Shown here one piece after another: positions 2,889 through 33,644 of a stretch of DNA of 64,000 bases. The translations under genes were made by a program, and so were the position numbers. Below the pieces are notes generated by a model, which worked only from the letters and a program-made list of their open reading frames with translations, did no database searches and was not told where the DNA came from. The stretch is from contig CAVNZM010000003.1 of NCBI GenBank assembly GCA_963693365.1, forward strand, positions 468,851 through 532,850, in the 5' to 3' direction. How positions within the stretch are numbered: position 1 is the stretch's first letter; each line of letters starts with the position of its first letter. This DNA comes from Amoebidium appalachense (lineage: Eukaryota > Protista > Ichthyosporea).

Positions 2889-4260
2889 CACACACACGCT
2901 CAACCGTTCTCTCACACCCAAACACATGATCACATACACACTGCATTTTATGAACGTAGGTGTTATTATAACATAACCACCAGGACAAAACTACATCCTG
3001 GAAAGGAGGGGCAGTCCGGGGAGGTAGCTTGTAAGTGTGGGTGAACGTGGGCACTGATGCATGCGCTGCGGACACATGCATATGTGCAAGTGTACTCTAT
3101 GCTAATACCGTGTGCGTGTGTACATGTTTCTGGTTGTGTGCTTGTGCACGCGACACACATGTGGGCGCTTCCTAAACGGAGCGACGTGGCTGTGAATGTG
3201 TTCACACATGTGGGTTACTACGTGCAGTAGTACAAGCGAAACCGTGGTTAACTAAGTTAATTAACAAAGTTTAACAAACAAACAAAAAAAAGTGCAGTGT
3301 ATACAATTAAACGGTACCCGTCCAGTATATGATGCAGTGTATGATACAGACGCCTCGTATGCACGTATATATATAAAAGATGCTCAACGGTACCTGCAAC
3401 GGTGAGGTTGTTCCAGAAACTCCGAAAAATGTCCCTAAATTGGTTTGTTTTCGACCAGATGGCCCCAATATCAGCCACAAACTGTATATAAAACACCGCC
3501 ATAAAACCGTTTAGTGGCTCTACTGCTCTATGTATACGCGTTTCATCATTATTCTATATAAAGAATATGCAAATAATAACACCCCTGTGGACGAATGGGG
3601 TTGAAGAACGGCATGGGACCAAGGCCTATTAAATATGGTGTGCTATTTAGGAGGCCTTGCATGGGACACACAGCAAAAGCCGCATTCCAGTGATAAAATT
3701 GGGCCCTAATTAGCGGAGGGCTGTTCCATTTTTGATTGCGTCTTCAGATGAATACATGTCGGGGGCATATGTACATGCAACGACGATTTTTGTTTTTCCA
3801 TGTGTCGCCTCGCACTTTTGGAGGATATTTACAATAGAAATGGGCATAGTAGTGTATTGTGCCCAATTCATGAGCATGCAATCCTATCTATTGCATTCCT
3901 ACCACCATTTCTGCCACATTCCTGAGGGAACTCCCGAATGATCACAAGTTGTCATCAATTCTATTTTTAACTTTTTGGACAAGACTTGTTTGATTCGCCT
4001 CAGATCATCAGTAAATCTTGCCATCTAGATGCCAACGCAGGTATATAAACGGTGCATGCCAGCTTTCATTTTCACCAAAACACATCCACTTCTCTTTTTT
4101 CAACCTCGCTTTACCGTTCACACTAACGCACAAGATGTCGCCACTATCTCGCGCCCTGGCCACCGCATGCATGGCCGGCTTTCTTACTCTCACCAATGCC
4201 TCGCTTTTCACCTTCTGCTACTACAGCAACGGACCGGAGGAATGTCAAATGAGCCCTGAA
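130..4260 (+). repeat. Diverged ~3-kb tandem segmental duplication (upstream region plus gene start)
   Basis: Collinear blocks: cttcctaaacggag..gaatgtgttcacacatgtg (~133/~3167), gtggacgaat..ttgaagaacgg (~499/~3587), cacattcctgagggaac (~808/~3915), gcacaagATGTC (~1216/~4128). Confidence 0.8.
1223..2104 (+). CDS. Intronless secreted protein (293 aa): signal peptide, Cys-containing N-terminal domain, Ser/Thr/Pro-rich linker, 14-Cys C-terminal domain
   Basis: Clean ORF. N-terminus MSPLSRALAAACMAGLLTATSA is signal-like. It has an S/T-rich linker and a C-terminus ending ...ENYCCF...EACCKDYCCKKV. A paralog at 4407-6101 conserves the C-terminal domain. Confidence 0.9.
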   Translation: MSPLSRALAAACMAGLLTATSAAPFTFCYYSGGQEDCKMDPDLGVCKDVAWSSCVDVAATWGATNTAGNNYVQFTTTAGSTDFSMDFFSDLNCQVPTGNSADRLAMSSCLAYLPVFAGYKGLGASSSTTTSTTTSTTKSSTTSTTKTPAPAPAPTSSAHTSSSIPTSSRSASTSRVLPSTTTPSTSAIKPTPKPAPTPTPSPVVTGLISCAKVVKCATYKPDPKTCGVMRCKAGVSWNTTMPCTENYCCFTSGTRGNCLSVDCPQGTKRTTKNCKLWAGSTEACCKDYCCKKV

Positions 4261-4266
4261 GTATGA
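4135..4266 (+). pseudogene. Truncated 5' remnant (43 codons) of a paralog of the 1223-2104 gene
   Basis: MSPLSRALATACMAGFLTLTNASLFTFCYYSNGPEECQMSPEV* aligns with MSPLSRALAAACMAGLLTATSAAPFTFCYYSGGQEDCKMDPDL. The upstream region is duplicated too. Confidence 0.8.
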
Positions 4267-4406
4267 CTGCTGTAGATGTTGTAATTGGACACATATCATT
4301 AGACAGTTATGCCGCCCTACTTAACAAGCTCCCACCCACCCAGTATATAGGTGGCCATCATTCTCTTGTTTTTTTTATTACAGCAGGTTTCGACAATAGT
4401 GTGAAA

Positions 4407-4790
4407 ATGTCGCTACGTATCTGTTTCTTTGCCGCTGCATGTTTGACGGGCACTTTTACCACCGTCAACGCAGAAAACATATACTTTTGCACCTACAGTA
4501 GCACGAGTGATTGCAATGGCCCAAAGACGAGCGCGAAATGCTCGACTACGCCTTTAGCTGAGTGTCTGGACGTTACGACACAGTTTGGCATAGTGACCAA
4601 CACGGACAACAAGTGCGTGGTAATCCAAACGAATGAATCCTTCTGCTTTCAGCATAGAATATACTACAGCAATGCGGATTGCAGTCAACTTTCAGTCATG
4701 GCGTCGATGACCACCACACCCTTCAATGTCTGTGACGGAAACCGTGTGTTTCCTGGATTCAGCACCTTGCAGAGCGCACCAACAGCCCCT

Positions 4791-4827
<37 letters not shown>

Positions 4828-6101
4828 AAACAACAACAACAACAACAGCAACAACAACAACCTCGACGACAACATCCACAACAATGTCGACGCCGCCGCC
4901 AACCCCCGCCGGGTTCCTCTGCACCTACAGTAGCGACACGGACTCCAAAGGCTGGCAGAGGACCGCAAATTGTCACAATGCTACCTTGTACACGTGTGTG
5001 GATGTCGAGGCAACATGGGGCGTTAGTAGCGGGACAAAGAAGTACGTTATGTTAAAGGACTACGGGGGTGTTATCGTGATTGCCTACTTCAACAGTTTAG
5101 ACTGCTCCGAACCTAGCAAAATTACCGATCCCATGCCGATAGGGTTACCCTATGACCTCTGCGTATGGGACAACATCATTACCTCACACCAGTTAACGAA
5201 AAATGCACCAACCTCGACAACAACCACAACAACTACTACAACCACCACCACCACAACATCCACAACGACAACGTCTTCCACAACAAAAAACACGTTATCT
5301 TCCGTAGATCAGGTGTACGTTTGCCGCTACAGCCTCGGGGAAGACGACTGCAAAGGCGCCAAGACGAGCGAGAACTGCATGGCCGTTCCAGTGGCCAGGT
5401 GTGTAGACATGACGGCTGTTTTTAGCACTAACCTGAACATGTATGTGATATATAACAGAGACACGGACATAACGTTAACAGCCGCAAACTACCTTCAGGC
5501 AGGGTGGGACGCATCATCCGCCCGAGGCAGCGGTACGCTTCTATACGATTATTGCATCAAAGATCCTATGGTTGGCGCATTCAATTGCAAAATTTACAAA
5601 AAGGGACCTTCCAACTCAACATCATCTTCCACGTCATCTTCGAGCACCAACAGCCATCCCAAAGAACCCAACACAAACGTCCACTTCCACAACAACAGGG
5701 ACACGTAAACCCACGTCATCCACCACGTCACCCACTAGCACTGGCAGGCTTCTCTCTACCACCATTAAAACATCAGCTACCCCTGTCAAGTCCTCTGCTA
5801 AGACTACACCCAAACCAACACCTACACCCACTGCCACCGGGCTCATTAGCTGCAACAAAATGGTGAAGTGTGCGGCCTACAAGCCCGACCAAAAACCTGT
5901 GGGGTGATGCGCTGCAAGGCCGGGGTGAGCTGGAATACAACAACGCCGTGCAATGAAAACACGTGTTGTTTGCCACAGAGCAGTACACGTGGCAGCTGTT
6001 TGTCGGTGGACTGCCCGCAGGGACAAAGACCCATAAATAAGAGCTGTAAACTGTGGGTGGGGTCGACTCAGCCGTGTTGCAGCAGCTATTGCTGTAAGTG
6101 A
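4407..6101 (+). pseudogene. Secreted Cys-rich/mucin-like paralog with three tandem N-type domains and poly-Thr linkers; two frameshifts (~5645, ~5890) separate it from the conserved C-terminal Cys domain
   Basis: The ORF starts at MSLRICFFAAAC (4407) and carries three CxYS...DCxG...C..C.D units before stopping at 5708. Homology continues in ORF 5572-5907 (TPKPTPTPTATGLISCNKMVKCAAYKPD) and ORF 5868-6101 (KTCGVMRCKAGVSWNTT...YCCK*). The shifts may be real lesions or assembly errors. Confidence 0.75.
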
Positions 6102-20178: not shown

Positions 20179-21260
20179 TATATAGGCGGGGGAAGGGGAG
20201 GGAGGGGAGCGGGGACCCAACACCAACCAGCACGTACACCAGGGGCGCCAGCTAAGTTTCGTCAATAAATAAAGCGGCATTTGATTTGTAGCGTGCTGGT
20301 CCCACTAAAAATAGTGTATGTTGTGGGGGGTTCAGACACAAAGCTTTTAGACCCCAGTTTCATTTGCCTACGTGATAGTATGTGAGTCAAAGAGCAACGT
20401 TATGGTGAGCTCATGCAAGCACACGGTGCACGACACAACACACGATCTTTATGCATGCCGGAAAACCAAACATTGTCATGTATTAGTGACAATGTAGTAT
20501 GTATCAGGATCAGCAGAGGCCGAGCCTGGGGTGGTGGTGGTTTTGGTGGTGGTGGCAGTGGCCACACCAGTGAGGGGGGGGGGAGAAGGCTTGAAGGGGA
20601 TGAACATGTTGATAATAGGGGGAGGATAACCATAACACATGGCCGAGTGGCGTGGGTACAATATTAATAGGCATAGGCTGCAAAGCTAGTACTAGTACCA
20701 CTAGGCAACTGCTTCAGACCATTAAGTAATAACTACCAACGATACACGCTACATAGCTGCCCACACGGTGGGGAACGGGACCAAAACAGAGTCGGTGCTA
20801 CCATATTTGTTAATATTTATGTATCTTACCCAAAGATGGCAGTGTGAACGTTACTGAACAGATGTTCGTCACTACAAAGATAAAATTAGAAAGACAACCT
20901 GCTACAGTTTAAGGGCTACTTTTTTCGAATCGAGCCTATAGCCCGGGTGAGAACTAAACGTAACACAGACGGTCGTACCAATATTCACCTGCCCGCCGGT
21001 GCGGACATTGCGTACATTAACAGGGGTAAAATACCAAAAGAAATTCCACTACGCATTCAACAATTTGGACTATTTTCCAGGTCCGAGCTTTGTGGGTGAT
21101 CGGGGTGGTGCGGGCGACCTTGGGATCTGCATAAGTGACATATCTCAGTTTGTGGCCTGTTGTGCAAACCTTTCCCTCCCACCCCCCCCCAAAACACCCA
21201 CCCACCCACCCACCCACCCACACCCACCCACCCACCCACCCACCCACCCACCCACACCCA

Positions 21261-22052: not shown

Positions 22053-23190
22053 GGGGAAGGGGGGGGGAGGGGGGCAGTGTCACCTTTGGGCTGCCAGTTG
22101 GTTCGCGCGTACTGCCGGCTGCAGAGGACAAATAATGAGGAGGAATGATATCGGTTGGATGATGTTGGGTGTAGTGAATAAAACGTGGTTGGGTGTAATG
22201 CATAACGGTTGTTTAATGACGGTTACATCCTAGCCTGAGACAATGCATTTACGTGCGCATGTGCGCATGTGTGTGCATGCGTGTGCATGTGTGTGTGTGT
22301 GTGTGCCTGTGTGCCGACAGTTTATGTGTATGGAAGAAAAAGGAAAGGGATAAACAACCATGACACATGATTGCGCATGGAGGGACACGAACAAGGAGAG
22401 AGGCGAGCCAGTATATGAAGGAATTGATTTCTTTTTCTTTTTTTTTTTTTTTTTTTTTTTTTTTGGGGGGGGGGGGGGGGGGGGATGAAGAGGTATTTGC
22501 TTAGACTACAACATTCCACAAACACGTCAGGGAATTGAAAAAAAAATGTGGCCCCCCCCCCCCCCCCCTCCCCCCTCCCCGCCACTCAAACCAATTCCTT
22601 CCCCGCCTCTTTATTTATTTAATCTTTCTTTTTTTTTGCGCGGGGGAGGGAGGGGGAGGGGGGCGGGGAGGGAGGGGAGGTCTTATTCAACGACCATAAT
22701 GCAACATTGACACGTGGATCTTGTTAAACGTAAACTTTCGCAACATAGAACAAACATAGGGGGAGAAGGGGGGGGGGGGGGGAGGGGGAGGACGGGGAGA
22801 AGGGAGGAAGGGGGGTGGGCTGAGAGATGAGGGTTTGGAGGTGTTGCATACATCTTCCCCGCTCCTTTAGACTGCCAGTGGCACGACCCTGCACACAAAA
22901 TATCACGTGTCAGACTTTAAAAGCACACGTGCAAAGACTTAAAAACACACGTAATAAGACTCAAAAAGATACACAAAACACGTGTAAAGACTTAGAAAGG
23001 CGAAAGTGTTAAGATTTCAACCCCGTTTGTTCTTTCTTTTTTTTTTATTAAGTGTAGAGACTTGTCAAGACAGGTCAACAGGTGGCACCCACGAGGCTAC
23101 AAAATGCCCCCGAATGGACCCAGAGATAATGCGGGGAGTCCTGGTATGCACACCTCCTCACACACACACACAAACACACAAACACACACA

Positions 23191-23552: not shown

Positions 23553-24224
23553 AGAGGGAGGGGGAGGTGGGGAGGGAGGATTGGGGGGATTTGAGTGGGA
23601 GGGAGGATTGCTTACGGCCAGAGGGGGAGACCCAGGTGCTGGTTTGCCCTCCTCTGTGGAGGAGATAAGAGCGTTAGCAACAGCCAATGAGAAAGGAAAG
23701 AAATCATGCATGTAGTGCTTTTGAGAGAAAGACGAAACGAAGCACAATGGAAGAATCGACGGGAATGTGCTGGAATCTGGTAAAAAGGAAGGGCCGGGCA
23801 GCGCGCAGGGCGTGCGGGGGGGGGGGGGGGAGGGGGGAGGGGGGGATGGGGGGCACACCAACCCACCCATCCCACATTCAAGCACCCGCCAAGCCACCAA
23901 CCCTCCTTTCCACTAACTCACCCACCCATCTCAACCTCTCATCCCCATCCTCCCTTCCCCTTCCCTCCCCCCCTCCCTCCCCCCTTTCTTTCCCATCCAC
24001 CCCCCCACCCCCTTTCCTCCACACCCAACCACCCAACACATTCTCCGTAGACTTCCTCCCCCCCCCCCCCCCCCCCCCCGCCCCACACGCACAAACACGT
24101 ACTTGGCCTATTAGGTGGTGATCTCAGTCTACCCAGCTGCAGGTAAGTAAACCTCCATCTCCCCCCCTCCCCCCTCCCCACCACACACACGCACCACCCC
24201 CCCCCCCGTTCCCCCTCCCCCCCT

Positions 24225-24255
<31 letters not shown>

Positions 24256-24676
24256 AAAAAAAAAAAAAGGAAGTAAACACACACACAAACACCCACCCAC
24301 CCACACGCACACGCACACACGTACTTGGCCTGTTAGGTGGTGACCTCAGTCTAGCCAGCTGCAGATATGTAAACCCTGCATGGTCACGTGCATCTTTGTC
24401 TGCTCCCGCCTTGAGCAGAATCTCAATCAGCCCCGTGTACCCCCGTGCACCAGCTAGGTGCAGCGGTGTGGTGCCCTGTACGTGTGTGTGTGTGAGTGTG
24501 TGTGTGTGTGTGTGCGTGCGTGTGTGTGTACGTGTGTCTGTGTGTGTGTGTGTGTGTGGCCGGGGGGGGAGGGGGGCGGGGAGGAAGGGGGTTTGTGTGT
24601 ACTAGAATGTGTGTGGGTGTGTTAGGCAGGGAGGGAGGGGGAGGAGTATGTGTGTGTGTGTGTGTGTGTGCATGTG

Positions 24677-24726
<50 letters not shown>

Positions 24727-26822
24727 TGTGCATATATGTATGTGCGAGAACGAATGTGTGAGTGAGGGATATTGGGTCGGGGTGGGAGGACGGGAGAGCG
24801 AGGGGGTCTGACTGAGTGTGTGTGTTTGTGGCGTGGGGGGCTGGGGGGAGAAGGAGGGGCAGGGAGGAGAGAGCCATGAAAGATGGAGGGAGGGTGGAAA
24901 GAAGGGAAACAAGGGGTGTGGAGGGCAATGGGGGTTTGAATTCAACTCGAAGAATGGCAATATCATAACAACTATGAACATGGGAGACGAAAGAACGGGA
25001 GACAACTGAGAAACCATGTTCCTTTGTATTGGTGGGGATGTCTCCCTAGAGTTTTCAAACTGGTATGTAAGTATTGGCAGGGAGAGATACCGTGCCTGAG
25101 CACGAACACACATGCACATGCTGTATAATAACACAACATCAAAACAAATAAAAATAAAATAAATAACAAGCCGACAGGAGAAAAAAGAAAAAAGTTTTTT
25201 TTCTTTTCTTTTTTTTTTTCGTTGGGTGGTGGCGGTAATGTCGGGGTGGAGTGGGGAGGGGATGAGGGGAGCGGGGCAAGGGAGGGGAAAAGAGGGGAGG
25301 GGGGGGGGGGGGGGGGGGAGGGGGGGGGATACATGTTGGAGTAGAGTCTGTTTTTGGGTGGGGTTAAGTGGTTGGGCAACGAAAGAATATTTTTGGCTAG
25401 GGTTGGGGATACATGGGGGGAGGGGGGGGGGATACACACCGACTATGTTTGATAACGCGATGGATATGTTGTACGGAACATCGGAACATCGGGATTGGAT
25501 GTGGGTGGATGAAAGGTGAGAATTAGACGTATATCCGCAACCCCCTCCCCCCTCCCCCTCTCCCCCCCAGGTCACACCAATATTGAATGGGATTGAGGGA
25601 AGGGTGAAAGTTAGATATGTATCAACCCCTGCCCCTCCCCCCCCCCCCCCCCCTCTCCCCAACCCTCCCTCCCGAGCATTTTGGAAAAGCTAGACAAGAA
25701 ATAAAACTTAGCCTAAAGGAACACAAAAAATCCCCCCCCCCCCCCCCCCCCCCCCACTCCTTCCCCCCTTCCCCCCAGCAAGCACCCCAAACTCGAAGAC
25801 CTTTATTGTGTCGATAGGCTTCCCCTTCCTTCCCCCCCCCCACCCCCACCCCCCTCTCCCCTCTCCGCACATACACCTAGCCCCCACATTCCTAGTTTCT
25901 CACGACCCCCCCCCCCCCCCCCCCCACCCCCCCCCCTCCATCCTTGGTGCATTCAACTTAGGCACAGGCAGGAACTTACCCTCTGATGTGCAAATATCGA
26001 CCATCCACAAGTTGCAGGGAATATGTGGGTGGGTGGACATGGTGTTAGTGTTTTAAGCATACAGAGTCCTTGAATCGTAACAACCCTCCTTCCCTCCCTC
26101 TCCCTCTCCCTCTCTCTCTCCCTCCCTCCCCCCCCCCCTCCCCTCCTTCCCTCTCTCTCCCTCTCCCTCCTTCCCCCCATCTGTCTCCCCCCTCTCCCCC
26201 CCCCCCCCCCCCCCCCCCCTTCCTTCCCCCATTCCCTCCCCACAAACACATACGTGTACCCATGCCACCCCACCTCTCAACAAGCAGGATACAAGATGTT
26301 CGATATGACACATACTTTTGCATCGATTTTGTGTGTGTGTGTTACTGGTGGTAGTGTTGGCGGGGACATTGTGGGTTTGCAGGCAACGGTGGGATGGGGC
26401 TAGAGGGGAGGTGGGGAGGGGGGAGGGGAGGGGGAGGGGGGAGGGGGGAGGGGGGGATGTATGTAGACACAGAGTAGTTTGCAATAAGAACACACAAGAG
26501 TGTCCGCCATGGGTGCGTTTTGTCTTTTTTGGGGTTGGAGGGGGGGAGGGGGGGGTAAAGGGGGGGAGAGGGGGGGGGGGGGGGGGGGGGACATTGTTCG
26601 AGCGACTGATTGGTGCTGGTGATGGGTGGGTGGGTGGAGGTTTGGGAGAGAGAGGGATCGAGAGAGAGAAAGGGAAAGAGGAAGCGCAAGAAAAACAGAG
26701 TGTGTATGTGTGTGTGTGTGTGCTCCTGAGGGAGAGGCACAAAAGGACAAAACAAACACAAAGCTTCTTCTCCTCCCCCTCCCCCCCCCCCCCAAAAAAA
26801 ATAAAAAACAAAAAAAAAACAC

Positions 26823-26861
<39 letters not shown>

Positions 26862-27620
26862 CCCTCTTTTTTTCCCCACACATAAAACTCAACACAAGAA
26901 AATAGAGGGATTACATGTAAGACCTACGTTTGTGACATTAACTGGGTGCTGTGCCTGCAACAGCAAGTTAACCAGATCCACATTGTTGGTGGCTACGGCA
27001 AAGTGCAGCCCAGACTGAAAGGGGGGGAGGGGGAGGGCGGGGCGGGGCGGGGGGTGTATGCGTTAAAGGTTTGGAAATATGGAGGAGACATAAATGGACA
27101 ACAACAACAAAATAAAACGTCGCAAAAATGAGAAACCCGAAATCAAGTGATTCCAGCGTGCACGCAGAAGTCACTTGAACAGAGCCCATCATCAGGGGAA
27201 GGAGGGGGGGGGGGGGGGGGGGGGAGGGGAGCTTCCGATTAGAATGTGTTACAGAGTGAGAAGTGCACATTCATAACGGAAAAAGGTGCAGAGTGAAAAC
27301 TACACACAAAGAGTATTGGGGGCGGCAGGGGAGGGGGGGGGTTTGAATGCGGAACACGGTACGAAGTACGCATACACGAAGGACACATGCAAAGGCAAAC
27401 ATTCAAGTATGCAACATAGCCATGCGCACAGTATGCGTCATAAGCAGAGCCCATCCTCAGGGAGGGCCCAAGGCGGGGGAGGGGGGGGGGGGGGGGGGGT
27501 GGAGGGGCAAAACATGTTACAGAGTGCAAAGTACACAATTACAACGGACAACACAACGCAGGGTGTAAACAACATATAGAGAGCACGTGTCACAAGGTAA
27601 GGGTGGGTGGGTGGGTGGGT

Positions 27621-27656
<36 letters not shown>

Positions 27657-28087
27657 AAGGGGATGGTTGGGTGTGGGCGAAAAAGCACACAGGTGTAGAT
27701 CTTTATCTATGTTTGCTTGGCACGTTTTGATATAACGGCATGTCCCCAGGATTACTTTATAATGACACATTCTTGTTTTTTAAAAAGAAAACATGTGTAG
27801 CCAACACTTTTCTTTAAGCCGACATCGATATGACGTATAATTGGGCATTGATGCCACACAGGGATATAGGCAGAAATAGACCTTTAAAACATTGTAGTGG
27901 AGTGGGCGATTGCTGTGTGTGAGTGCAAAAAGAAGAAGCACATCTAAACTTGGGAGGGATCTCCTATCAAGTTGTCTTGGTTGCTGTTTCACTATCCCTT
28001 TGCCCGCCCCATGTGCTTGTCCCTTTAAGTTTTCTGTTTCCGTACAACCCTCCCCCCCCCCCCCCCTTCCTCCCCTCCCCCCTTCTC

Positions 28088-28120
<33 letters not shown>

Positions 28121-28161
28121 ACCCACCCACCCAGCAAAACCACGCACACACATACACACGT

Positions 28162-28237
<76 letters not shown>

Positions 28238-28681
28238 CACATGTCTACCCAAAGCCCGCTTACTGGTGGAAGAGAAGGGAAGAAAGAAAGGACGGGAGGG
28301 AAGAAAGGAAGGAACGAGGAGGGGGGAATGGGGGGAAAGGTGAGATGACGTCAGGTTTACGTCAAGTTGAAACCAGAGTATATGGTGGGCTTTGCCTCTA
28401 TCATGTAACTCCCTTGTTTAGCAATTGCTTCATTGACATATAAATGTATTCTCGGGAAACAAAAACATAGACGATCATTATGAGATACATAGGTAGGCGA
28501 AAGGATGGGCCACTTACATACTGTATGGCGGAGGCGAGCGGGCGATGGGTGGAGGTAGAGATAGTGTGGTAGTGTTAGTGTTGGAAATCGGGCAGACACA
28601 AGGCAGAAAGCATAAACACACTGGCATATTTGGTAATGTATTGGACCTGGTTTTTGCGTGCAATTAAATTTTGAGTGTAGA

Positions 28682-28719
<38 letters not shown>

Positions 28720-29011
28720 ACACGTACCCCTGCACCTCTCTCTTCGATTTTCGACTATAATCTACACGATTGTTGCCATTCCATGCCGGGATGCAAACCC
28801 AGATATGCATGAAGTACTCGTAAAACATAAGAGAGAGAGGAAGGAGGGGGGAGGAAGGAGGAGGAGGGGGTGGGTGGGTGGGTGGTGGGGGGGGGGGGGG
28901 ACACAATGTGGTGCATGCACAATAACGCAATAACTGTTATCAGTTTCAAACGGCTCACCGTAGTTTGAACACGCAAAAGAAACAAAAGATAGTAAGTTTT
29001 TTTTTTTTTTT

Positions 29012-29057
<46 letters not shown>

Positions 29058-29213
29058 TAATGAATCAGGGGATAGGCAGCAGATTCCAGGTGATGACGCC
29101 AGAAACTTACCCCCTGTGGAAAACACCAAAACCGTCAGTTTAAATAGCCCTCACCCTCCCCCCCCCCCCCCCCCCTCCCCCTGCTCACTTCATGTGCCCT
29201 CCCTCCATCAACG

Positions 29214-29246
<33 letters not shown>

Positions 29247-29483
29247 TTTAATGGAACACATCTCTGACTACCACCCTTAAACCCTTCATAGACATCGACA
29301 CTGACCACTCCATGGGGGGACTGGGAGAGAGGGAGAAAGAGAAAGCAGGGGGGATGGGTCGGGGGGAGTGGGGAGGGGGGGGGGGGGGGGGGAGGATGGG
29401 AGAAAGAGAGTTCGATTTTCGTTTTTGTTGTTGTTGTTTGTGCGCGCGCGTGTGTGTTTGTGTCTGTGTGTGTGTGTGTGTTT

Positions 29484-29522
<39 letters not shown>

Positions 29523-32500
29523 TGTGTGTTTGGGGGGGGGGGCGGTGGGAGGGGGAGCGGGGGTATATGTTGCTAGAATTAGCTAATATAAAATTATTGT
29601 TTGAATGCCGAAATGGGATCAAGAGACCAAGAGTGCGCATTCTTTACAATTGCATACAGGAATCCGACGTCTAATGTGCTGGTTTACATAGCACAAGAAC
29701 AGACATTCATGGCATGGTTGTTACACATGGGCCATGGGCAGTTCTAGTTATTTCCTATCAACACACACACACACACACACATACATCCACACACACATAC
29801 ACACACGCGCGCGTGCACACGAACCTCCTCCCCTCCCCCCCCCCTCCCCCCCCCCCCACACACACACAAATACGCACACACAAGCACGGCGCGCGTGCAC
29901 CCGCGCGCACACACACACACACACCTACCTACGAATGCACGAGCACACTCCAACACACACACACCAACCCACCTCTCCTATCCTCCCACCAACTCCACTT
30001 ACACCAACAATTAGCCCAGATATCACTCACCGTGAATTGGTCCTGGCAAGAACAACACGTTCCACGTTGCCGTAAGCAGAGGGAGGGCAGGAGAAACACG
30101 TTAGGCCCAACCACAAAATATGCTAACCCTCCCCCCCCCCCCCTTCCCTTCTGCCTTTATTCCTCCATTGTCGACACCCCACCCCTCACCCTCTCCTGTT
30201 CACATGCACACTGAATACCCCCTCCCCCCCTCAACCCGCCCCCCCCCCCCCCACCCCTTCCCCCCGACTCCACCTTTCAAAAACATACCGCTTACAACTT
30301 TGTCCCTGCCCCCTTTTCTCTCCGACTGCTGCCCACTCTCCCCTCCGCTCCCCCCCCCCCCTCCAAACCCCCCCTCCCCCCTCATGCACGTTAGTGTGTG
30401 TGTGATCGTTTGTGTGTGTGTGCACATGTGCAATTTGGGTATACCATGTGATTTAGGTGTGTATATGTGGATGTGTGGGTGTGCGTGTGTGTATGTGTGT
30501 GCGTGTGTGTGTGTGTGCGTGCTTGTGTTTGTGTGCGTGTGTATGTGTGTGTGGACGGGTGTACTGTGTGTGTGTTTGTGTGTTTGTGTGTGTGTGTATG
30601 TGTGCGCGCGAACGCGCGCGCGTGTTTGTGTGGGTGTGGGTGCACGCACAAGTCTGTGGCATCTAACTATCTCCGCACAAAAGCACACATGGATGATCAC
30701 GTGCACGCATGAGCAAAAACGTACACACATCAGCTGTGTGTGTGTGTCATATATGCAGATGCGCAGCTTATGCACACACACGTGCCAGCACAATCTTCCA
30801 CAGTGCACGTGCACCTACACGACACAGGCCAACTCAGTGTGTGCATGCACGTGCACACATGGGTCAGTGAATTTTGTGCATGTACGTGCACACACATAAG
30901 CAATTGATTGTGCACGTGCACACACATAAGCAATTGATTGTGCACGTGCACACACATAAGCAATTGATTGTGCACGTGCACACACATAAGTTAGTGCATT
31001 GTGTGCATGTACGTGCACACACATACACAACTGATTATGCACGTGCACACACGCATGCCAGCACAGTCTCCCACCGTGCACGTGCACACGCATAAGCCAA
31101 TCCACTGTGTGCAGGCACGTGCAGCCATTCAGCACCCAGCCGACCTTCGTCCACACGATGTCGTCTGAGCGCTGAATGGCTTTCTTCACTGTCGCTACAT
31201 CCCCCTTGGCAGCCGCAGCTAGAAACCTCCGCTCATCCTAATTTTATTTGTTTGGTTTTTTTTTGTTTGGGGTTTTCAGGATAAAGGGGGAGTGGGGGGG
31301 GGGGGGGAGGGGGGAGGGGGGGGGGGGGGGAGGGGGGGAGGTGGGGGGGGGAGGGGGGGGGGGGGGGGGGGGCAGGAGCTGTTGGAGAAGGGCGACAGAG
31401 TTGGGAGAAGTGAAGGGGGGAAATCTCGGTGAAGGAGGGGTCGGTTTAGGTGGTGGTGGTGGTGGGGTGTGTGTGTGTGTGTTTGGAAGGGGGAGGGGGG
31501 GGGGGGGGGGGGGGGAGGGGGGAAGGGGGGCAATAAGCAAATGTATTTGCACAATACACCAGATTAGAGAATCCTTAGCAACTGCACAATGCTAAACTGT
31601 AGATAGGGAGGGAGGAAGTCAGTGTATGCACGTGGGGGAGGGCAGGGGGGAGGGGAGGGGGGGGGGAGGCTTGGAATATGCAAACATACACGGTATGATG
31701 AGTATGGAAAACTGTCAGATCCAAGAAACAGGCAGGAGCGAGACGCTATTTCAGAGGATGGAGATAAAACCTAGCAGAAAAGATGTACCATCGACCGTGC
31801 GTATAACGAGTATGAGATCTGTGTGTTTTGTGTACAGCATTAAGATTGACTGTGTGTGTGTGTGTGTGTGCGTGTTTATACGGTTAGAGTGCAAAAACTG
31901 GATTATGAGCAGTGTTATGAAATGCTGACTAGTCTACCAGAGAACAAGCAAGACTGAAAAGGTGAGACTTGGGGGAGTGTCTTTACCCACCTTGGTTGTG
32001 CCGTCTTTCTTAACTTTCTCTGCACATCGAACATGTCAGTGTTTCGAAGAAACAAAACAAGAAGTAAGTGTTTTCTTCCGCTAATAAAAAGGGGGCTGCC
32101 ATTCCGGAAAGGGGGTAGAGATGAGAGAGTGAAGGGGATCGAGGTTAAGGGGGAGGGGTGTATGGGATGTTGGGGGGGGGGGGGGGGGAGGGGGGGGGGG
32201 GGGGGGGCTGGGAAAGGGGGGAGGAGGAAGAGGGGGAGAGGGGGGGGGGGGGGGGGTATTGTAAAACAAAGGTTGACACAGAGAACTTGGTTACATAGTG
32301 AGCACAACCCCTATCTTTGCTGAAGCCAGTGACCAGTAACCACGGCTGCTAAAACTGTCCTTTTGCTTCAAACATAAACTTGTAGCTAACAGATGATAGG
32401 AAAAAAAAACTGCTGGGGAAGAGGTGGATGAGGGGGAGCTGCGGATTTGTGAAAGATTGAGCGCCAAATTGGGTAGAAAAAGGCACAGCAACATAGCATG

Positions 32501-32651
32501 CGGGATCTGGTGAGCACACGAGAAAAAAAAAAAACAGGAAACGGGAAGGTGGTCCAAGAAAGACTAGGCTCAGAAACTATGTCTCACAGACGCTACCTTG
32601 GTTTCGTTGGGCCTTCTGTAGCTTCTGGATGTTGTGGGCTACACCACCCAT
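21594..32651 (-). CDS. Ankyrin-repeat protein with microexons; 3' end uncertain
   Basis: Exons on the - strand: 32651-32597 [18 protein letters not shown]; 32019-31991 [10 protein letters not shown]; 31237-31145 [31 protein letters not shown]; 30042-30031 DQFT; 29113-29111 G; 28520-28518 Y; 27014-26928 [29 protein letters not shown]; 25982-25980 R; 25442-25440 S; 24475-24325 [50 protein letters not shown]; 23653-23616 [13 protein letters not shown]. Further candidate exons near 23140, 22885, 22118 and 21695 are less certain. Confidence 0.85.
27340..27471 (-). repeat. Intronic ~145-nt dispersed repeat, copy in an ankyrin-gene intron
   Basis: Reverse complement of gggccctccctgaggatgggctctgcttatgacgcatactgtgcgcatggct...gtacttcgtaccgtgttccgcattcaaacccc. 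Confidence 0.9.
30870..31097. repeat. 30-bp minisatellite in an intron of the ankyrin gene
   Basis: Unit gtgcacacacataagcaattgattgtgcac repeated three times perfectly (~30886-30975), with degenerate flanking copies. Confidence 0.85.
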
Positions 32652-33644
32652 TTTTCTTTCCCTGTTGAAAGACAGAGATGAGAAGTCGTGTTTGGAAAAA
32701 GCTCAACCTGAACAAGAACCCAAGGGATGACTTACTGCGTCTTCTTCCCCAGGCATGTTGGCGTTTGGTAACCCTGGGTGTTTTTTCTGCTAAAGAATGT
32801 GTTATTTATTCTCTCTCTTCAACAAACCCTGGCTTTCGCACCAAGTTCATACAGTTACCAGAGACCTACTATAATAGATCCTAAGTGATTCGACCAAGAG
32901 ATCTAGATTGATGGGAGTTTGGCTGAGCAGTGTTTGGCTCAAACAGCGTCACGTATTTTTCCGCTTCACCGCCTTCTACACTTTAAGTAATGTGCAAGCT
33001 CTTTCTCTTTGTGCTAACCCTAACATCTCAGCCTAAAGTTTCCGAAATAGCCAGGCTGAGAGTTTCTAACTTTTCAGAGTCCCGCGAGTTTGCTGTGCAG
33101 TGTGTTGAGAAACTTGCCGGCTGGCATGGTGCGCCGTAAACCAATCATATTGCTACAAACAATAATAGCCATATATGGCATGTATTTCTAGCATGATGAC
33201 GTCACTAATATACTAATATTAGTACGATGATGCCTTACAATGGGTTTTGGAACAGGAGAGGAAGACCCGGGGGGAGCGGGGGGAGGGGGGGGGGGGGGGG
33301 AGGGGGGGGGGAGGGGGGGACATTCGTGGTGCGCGCGCAATCGCCTTGGGCGCGCCGACAACAAAAAAGGTATATAATGTTGCTTCTCTGTAACAATCGT
33401 GTACTTGTATATATTTCTCATCACATATTCATCAGGCTACACTGTAGCACCTGACAGGCAGAATTGGAATACTGGTGTCAATTTGTGTATGATAATTCCT
33501 TTAGAATAATAGCCCCCCCCCCCCCTCCTCCCACAGAAAAACATACAACCCCCCCTCCCCCCCCACCACCACCCACGCCAACACACACATTATGATCAAA
33601 CCCCCCCCCCCCCCCCCATCCCCTACACACACATACCGTCACAG

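Follow-up and report, generated by a model that had tools for sequence, protein, structure and literature searches.

How a spliceosome handles an internal exon of three nucleotides, and whether it can do so twice in succession within one transcript, is the question raised by an ankyrin-repeat gene of Amoebidium appalachense, a unicellular holozoan of the Ichthyosporea. The gene lies on the minus strand of a 64,000-nt stretch of DNA (assembly GCA_963693365.1, contig CAVNZM010000003.1, positions 468,851 to 532,850), which is called the window here and whose own numbering is used throughout. A preliminary description of this DNA had proposed that loops of the encoded protein are assembled from consecutive single-codon exons, and the five sites that it listed are all present where it placed them: a 12-nt exon at 30031-30042 (D70-Q-F-T73), GGG at 29111-29113 (G74, the conserved ankyrin Gly), TAT at 28518-28520 (Y75), AGG at 25980-25982 (R105), and TCG at 25440-25442 (S106). 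The four single-codon exons are proved by RNA, not by motif count.

This evidence comes from assembled sequencing runs. Nineteen runs were listed, and four of them (X1, X18, X19, and X8) were aligned to positions 26870-27200, which contain the 87-nt exon (26928-27014, phase 0-0) that encodes the second ankyrin repeat. Nothing from X19 aligned within this segment, and X8 gave matches to G-runs only; runs X2-X17 (share 0.05-0.06), among which X8 alone was aligned, were treated as low-complexity matches. X1 and X18 represent one sample, and their status as RNA was a guess. Each yields one contig (1390 nt at a depth of 461 for X1; 1431 nt at a depth of 35 for X18) that spans exactly 26928-27014 with 0 differences and then diverges from the genome at both splice sites of the 87-nt exon. 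Because kilobase introns are jumped at AG/GT boundaries, the X1 and X18 contigs are spliced RNA. On the gene strand, their upstream loose ends contain the 3' end of a 93-nt exon (31145-31237, phase 0-0), which encodes the first ankyrin helix pair, and finish with GAC CAA TTC ACG GGG TAT, that is, the 12-nt exon followed by GGG TAT. The downstream loose ends begin with AGG TCG GGC ACC and so enter the 5' end of the next exon, which has 151 nt (24325-24475) and encodes the third ankyrin repeat and the capping helix. Across the 87 aligned and 60 loose-end bases there is no other difference between the RNA and the predicted exons.

A search with the 151-nt exon retrieved P0001, a transcriptome-derived protein of 211 amino acids that is 100% identical over the query and is labelled Amoebidium parasiticum (an ichthyosporean) by its source. 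This protein reads WTK-DQFT-G-Y-SGLHFA at the first junction and VTN-R-S-GTTPLH at the second. Thus the letters predicted for the two junctions, GGG TAT and AGG TCG, are found exactly in the contigs and in P0001, and no direct join of the flanking exons occurs among the contigs. No skipped form was found among the X1/X18 contigs or in P0001, which hold the fully included form only; contigs, however, drop minor forms and so cannot exclude skipping. Since X1 and X18 are one sample, and P0001 may derive from the same material, these records are counted as one biological source.

RNA was needed as the test because the signals themselves exceed chance only mildly: YAG-NNN-GTRAGT occurs at 6 sites across the window against 2.3 expected, with a maximum of 6 in 60 shuffles, which is a mild enrichment. 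Once the RNA letters are known, however, their genomic source is tightly constrained. All GT/GC-AG parses of the junction sequences were enumerated on the genome, allowing up to three internal exons at junction 1 and up to two at junction 2. Junction 1 has a single parse, 12+3+3. Junction 2 has two parses, both 3+3, the second of which relies on a poor AAG/GC site. The hexamers GGGTAT and AGGTCG are absent from the introns, and neither intron block contains a single 6-nt exon for them. When each intron block was subjected to dinucleotide shuffling, an ordered YAG-NNN-GTRNGT pair that spells the six letters of the RNA arose in 1 of 3000 shuffles for junction 1 and in 0 of 3000 for junction 2; relaxing the pattern to any AG-NNN-GT pair raised these counts to 104 and 14.

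Could the six letters come from elsewhere, through an assembly gap, trans-splicing, or insertional editing? The assembly does have probable homopolymer errors, which lends this idea some footing, but every base is supplied by canonical, ordered cis sites of a kind that occurs 0-1 times per 3000 shuffles. The complete cis parse makes such an origin unnecessary, and we consider it barely conceivable. A second alternative concerns Gly-Tyr alone. At 28724-28729 on the minus strand there is a 6-nt site, cag|GGGTAC|gtgttt, which has AG and GT ends, encodes the same two residues, and was in fact chosen by a protein-only alignment of P0001. If it were the exon, the last base would mismatch the RNA through a C/T allele difference or editing, and only the Arg-Ser 3+3 pair would be real. 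However, both RNA contigs read TAT and otherwise match the genome throughout their aligned and loose-end bases. The rival site lacks a branch motif, has an AG-free zone of 4 nt and a GTGTTT donor, and is probably unused, whereas the GGG and TAT exons have perfect donors and branch motifs; moreover, a synonymous 6-nt site appears by chance in 109 of 3000 shuffles. Use of this site is thus very improbable, and its selection by the protein-only alignment is counted below among the points against our reading.

The tiny exons are well equipped with splice signals. All five have canonical AG/GT sites and a branch motif, and no simpler parse fits the RNA. The preliminary description had noted CTAAC, CTGAC, or CTAAT upstream of each acceptor with no intervening AG, and CTRAY indeed lies within the AG-free zone at 5/5 acceptors. 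In particular, the 12-nt exon has a ccag acceptor, CTAAC 58 nt upstream, and the donor GTGAGT; GGG has a cag acceptor, CTGAC 21 nt upstream, and GTAAGT; TAT has a cag acceptor, CTAAC 54 nt upstream, and GTAAGT; AGG has a cag acceptor, CTAAC 62 nt upstream, and GTAAGT; and TCG has a tag acceptor, CTAAT 80 nt upstream, and GTGTGT, the weakest donor of the five. The comparison exons were those of the rest of the ankyrin gene and of a predicted seven-exon neighbour resembling NIP7. GTRAGT donors are present at 4/5 tiny exons but at 0/13 other internal exons (Fisher p=0.002); with first exons counted, the contrast is 4/5 versus 2/15 (p=0.014). The distances from CTRAY to the acceptor have a counterpart of 23 nt (median) in 9 other exons (p=0.054), and the distances from the branch motif to the donor, 24-83 nt, resemble those of short ordinary exons in the window.

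These features suggest a route by which such exons could be spliced. The U1 particle and the acceptor complex cannot share a 3-nt exon, as stated in a review (PMC8911335), and the introns would accordingly be removed one at a time. The spliceosome being unable to occupy both sides of three nucleotides, one flanking intron would go first, and by analogy with other systems this is likely the downstream one, from a near-perfect GTAAGT donor. In plants, downstream-first removal is reported as favoured in 32 of the 49 microexons with all read types (PMC8831610), and SRRM4-dependent microexons are given as 58% downstream-first and 26% upstream-first (PMC10250204). The first splice would fuse the codon to a large exon, after which the next step would be an ordinary splice. 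A branch point 54-80 nt upstream, as found for four of the five tiny exons, likely supplies the spacing that the exon itself lacks: the distant motif would place U2 24-83 nt from the donor, and the AG-free zone would direct the first AG to the correct base. In human and chicken neural microexons, the median distance from branch to acceptor is likewise reported as extended, 45 versus 34 nt (PMC12871342). It may be added that, if AGG were joined to TCG first, the pair itself would come to contain a CAG/GT that was not there before. This site resembles the gene's own donor GTCGGC after 31145 and hence hints at a constrained splicing order.

How did this layout arise? It likely reflects repeated intron gain in an intron-rich lineage. 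An episode of intron gain is described for the ichthyophonid ichthyosporeans (PMC5560861, an intron analysis that apparently does not include Amoebidium), and Amoebidium genes are reported to have a mean of 7.2 exons (PMC11244446). Duplication of one repeat was considered as a source of both pairs and rejected: pair 1 is the Gly and the next residue, pair 2 is the two residues before the Gly, and only the pre-Gly intron is common to them. Since the two pairs occupy non-equivalent positions in the repeat, they arose separately. The seven exons of the loop region (93, 12, 3, 3, 87, 3, and 3 nt) are all phase 0 and multiples of 3, compared with multiples of 3 at 2/10 other internal exons (p=0.002, for a grouping made post hoc). 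Whole-codon exons in tolerant loops would have survived because occasional skipping keeps the frame, and the whole-codon bias is best explained as such a survival filter on skip-prone exons, although regulated cassettes would look alike. Taken together, we think it probable that the four 3-nt exons in two adjacent pairs and the one 12-nt exon arose by intron gain, are mostly included, and are spliced by the U2-type spliceosome one intron at a time.

Several points weigh against this reading. Besides the choice made by the protein-only alignment, the RNA evidence is one sample, and contigs that lose minor forms say little about the level of inclusion. The order of intron removal is taken by analogy from the systems cited above. 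Since no orthologue was found, intron gain is deduced rather than traced. The contrast in branch distance is borderline, with 5 versus 9 exons compared, and 6 of 15 other exons have no motif; AG-free zones show no difference between tiny and other exons (p=0.33); and two of the tiny exons depart from the pattern, GGG in the closeness of its branch motif and TCG in the weakness of its donor. Finally, the 1-2-nt exons of Coprinopsis cinerea (70) are reported to outnumber its 3-nt exons (27; PMC12230235), unlike the strict whole-codon pattern found here, and that strictness may mean that skipping is used.

This last point leads to the possibility that the single-codon exons are regulated cassettes, in which case skipping one or both of a pair would trim the beta-hairpin loops by a residue and tune ankyrin binding. 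To judge it, one must know where the four residues lie in the protein. P0001 scores above the Pfam cut-offs for Ank, Ank_2, Ank_3, Ank_4, and Ank_5. The AlphaFold model used was the alignment-based one, as the single-sequence model was unusable (pLDDT 49); it has an N-terminal helix, three helix pairs with a cap, and a low-confidence tail. The ankyrin region is folded as helix-turn-helix repeats, and for the greater part of it pLDDT is about 90-97. The protein is likely a small adaptor of three ankyrin repeats, which an N-terminal helix precedes and a disordered Pro/Ser tail follows. In this model G74, Y75, R105, and S106 are placed in the connecting inter-repeat loops, in agreement with what the preliminary description had proposed. 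Motif statistics were taken from the other 259 proteins fetched. The Gly lies two residues before TPLH in 1,958 of 2,827 ankyrin motifs and one residue before it in 49, and 1,287 of the 1,958 have D or N three residues before that Gly. The included form is therefore the consensus-spaced form, as had been argued from the earlier claim that the tiny exons restore ankyrin spacing. Variability is high at the sites of R105, S106, and Y75 (about 3.7 bits over 1,102 motifs), and DARPin alignments vary at the same columns, which we take to be the randomised binding positions of DARPins.

Regulated skipping would suit some of these findings. The loop-region exons are 7/7 phase 0 and whole-codon, three of the four codons lie at the most variable ankyrin positions, and functional 3-nt cassettes are described in MAP4K5 (PMC8632122) and in Drosophila homothorax (PMC7392893). 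However, the full form alone is found among the contigs and P0001. One of the exons is the conserved Gly, whose skipping would delete rather than diversify, and deletions break the consensus spacing. No second strong single-codon exon able to swap a residue is present in these introns, as mutually exclusive use would require; 25 relaxed candidates of 1-15 nt in the gene include just one further 3-nt candidate within an intron (25120), whose donor is weak and which lacks a CTRAY motif. In addition, a study of Creolimax with a microexon module reports that regulated skipping is rare and mostly frame-breaking, seldom frame-preserving (PMC4739763). The earlier suggestion of residue-by-residue loop variation consequently stands only in so far as three codons occupy variable surface positions; the sole presence of the included form, the lack of swap exons, and the conserved Gly speak against the rest. 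We regard regulated cassettes as possible but rather unlikely.

The preliminary description had also invoked an unusually capable splicing mode. Such a mode is not needed, given that exons of 1-3 nt occur in fungi and plants. The NIP7-like neighbour has no exon below 43 nt. In a related form of the idea, Amoebidium would have a dedicated, lineage-wide capacity for tiny exons, by way of a convergent enhancer factor or of branch-point-to-donor definition, and this gene would be one of many. In its favour, four 3-nt exons are found in the one transcript-mapped gene of the window, as against 27 in the entire annotation of Coprinopsis, spread over 26 genes (PMC12230235), and they are accompanied by flanking introns of 0.5-1.5 kb and distant branch motifs. 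Against it, the neighbour has no tiny exon among its seven predicted exons, and the rest of the window has no more strong candidates for tiny exons than chance would give. The eMIC domain is reported as a bilaterian invention (10.1101/2021.02.24.432780), and UGC lies within 25 nt of the acceptor at only 2/5 tiny exons (1/4 of the three-base exons), which is not the eMIC type. A lineage-wide capacity is accordingly doubtful. The fullest version, in which Amoebidium routinely builds loops from strings of single-codon exons under controlled skipping, with a microexon programme independent of animal eMIC, is improbable; were it true, a unicellular relative of animals would be able to tune its binding surfaces codon by codon.

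Where, then, do these exons belong among known microexons? As internal exons of at most 30 nt whose bases are present in spliced RNA, they count as microexons. They do not seem to belong to the eMIC neural programme, though alike in donor strength and perhaps in branch spacing. The neural microexons that depend on SRRM3/4 and eMIC are described as 3-27 nt long and share frame preservation, long flanking introns, and strong donors with those of Amoebidium; they also have an extended branch-to-acceptor distance, for which the contrast in Amoebidium is borderline (10.1101/2021.02.24.432780, PMC12871342, PMC10250204). However, they are tissue-regulated and need eMIC and UGC, whereas Amoebidium is unicellular, has UGC near few of the tiny-exon acceptors, and gave contigs with no skipping.

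Exons of 1-3 nt are themselves known, having been reported in plants (PMC8831610), a mushroom (PMC12230235), a dinoflagellate (PMC12584245), human MAP4K5 (PMC8632122), and fly homothorax (PMC7392893). Plant microexons, given as 1-15 nt, include 1-nt exons in APC11 and VPS55 and an adjacent 5+12-nt pair in rice Os08t0562700. They share with the Amoebidium exons a tiny coding size, strong GTRAGT donors, omission from annotation, and usual inclusion, and their flanking introns are described as removed in turn, mostly the downstream one first. They differ in that only about half are multiples of 3 and that the adjacent case is 5+12 rather than 3+3, and the word 'ankyrin' is absent from the main text of that report (PMC8831610). 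Coprinopsis cinerea, like Amoebidium an intron-rich non-animal opisthokont with exons of at most 3 nt, is reported to have 13 exons of 1 nt, 57 of 2 nt, and 27 of 3 nt, in 89 genes (PMC12230235). These figures leave room for no more than one gene with a second 3-nt exon, and most of the exons are of a size that shifts the frame, whereas in the Amoebidium gene there are four 3-nt exons, each of them a whole codon and each next to another. RPS24, with consecutive microexons of 3, 18, and 22 nt (PMC11162997, PMC12207440, PMC12686416), MAP4K5, and homothorax offer 3-nt exons and runs of consecutive microexons, but these are described as alternative, with one 3-nt exon per run rather than two adjacent single codons in a folded repeat.

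The Amoebidium gene has 24 of about 630 coding nt inside microexons and encodes a folded ankyrin domain. In schistosome micro-exon genes, on the other hand, symmetric microexons make up most of the coding sequence and give many skipped variants of a secreted protein, so that the present gene is not of that type. No adjacent 3+3 exon pair was found in the literature, although examples could be present in the supplementary material of PMC11244446, PMC12230235, and PMC8831610. Likewise, no report of microexons in Amoebidium was found, and the main text of PMC11244446 does not contain the word 'microexon'. What is new here is the occurrence of four single-codon exons, in adjacent pairs, in a folded repeat domain of a unicellular holozoan.

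This gene is an RNA-supported extreme of gene architecture: its one-codon exons form two adjacent pairs, with spacings of 0.5-1.5 kb, and no report credits its lineage with the microexon factor of animals. For the wider problem of how exons below the size needed for exon definition are spliced, the 12+3+3-nt run offers a direct test of splicing order and of branch-point spacing, in a transcript whose depth in the assembly is good. There is also a practical consequence, as ichthyosporean gene models may lose residues or misplace junctions, in the way that the protein-only alignment picked the wrong 6-nt exon here. Should exons of this kind turn out to be frequent or regulated in the lineage, the view of precise, frame-preserving microexon use as an animal feature would have to be revised.

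With the help of a spliced alignment to P0001, the gene is resolved into 15 exons from about 32756 to 21070, with all introns GT-AG. Exon 1 (32736-32756, donor GTAAGT) is either coding, supplying MPGEEDA of P0001, or 5' leader. Exon 2 (32597-32661) contains an ATG at 32651, which the genome precedes with 5 A's at 32651-32655 against the 4 implied by P0001, so that the first ten residues are out of frame; the extra A probably stems from a homopolymer error, and if it does not, M11 is the first residue of the protein. Exon 3 (31991-32019) has 29 nt, and the 93-nt exon described above is exon 4. The introns across the loop region then measure 1102, 917, 590, 1503, 945, 537, and 964 nt. As had been pointed out for about 6.7 kb of DNA, the 6,669 nt from 24476 to 31144 hold 111 coding nt in total, including the central 87-nt exon. 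Downstream of the 151-nt exon, the Pro/Ser-rich tail is encoded by exons of 38 nt (23616-23653), 37 nt (22852-22888), and 35 nt (22084-22118), and the last coding exon, with the stop codon, is at 21070-21126. The last intron contains a possible unused 12-nt cassette (21445-21434, minus strand) with a TAG acceptor, a GTGAGT donor, and TTAAT 30 nt upstream; its inclusion would keep the frame, but P0001 does not contain it.

Neither the homologue searches nor a 50% representative library yielded an orthologue: beside P0001 they returned generic ankyrin proteins, the best other hits being 25-48% identical. The Atlas look-alike, PPP1R27, is a generic short ankyrin protein, with which a short-ankyrin build is shared rather than a demonstrated orthology. 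P0001 has the helix-turn-helix repeats and connecting loops of ankyrin repeat proteins (Pfam PF00023, PF12796; DARPins), but no orthologue or named subfamily among the matches found.

The rest of the window holds several other genes. The NIP7-like neighbour, at 38827-33938 on the minus strand, lies upstream of the ankyrin gene and stops about 1.2 kb short of it; its seven predicted exons are at least 43 nt long and open over 180 codons, and one of them matches the PUA domain UPF0113 (Pfam). The plus strand carries, from about 39800 to 57300, a large gene of many exons that include charged and Pro-rich ones of low complexity. Its first exons resemble the N-terminal Tudor region of ARID4/RBBP1, although the gene gave no Pfam match, and a homologue search with one exon gave no candidate. 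Near 54300, two long open reading frames overlap in different frames, which is likely an assembly indel. Two related, intron-poor genes at about 1220-2100 and 4170-6100 (plus strand), which are alike at their starts and contain segments with Cys and stretches rich in Thr and Pro, look like genes for secreted or wall proteins. At 62920-63711 (plus strand) there is an intronless gene whose product is a protease of the trypsin family (Pfam Trypsin, E=4e-39) and begins like a signal peptide. Finally, a dispersed repeat of ~150 nt is present in both orientations in several introns (27400-27490, 45080-45200, 58170-58320, and others).

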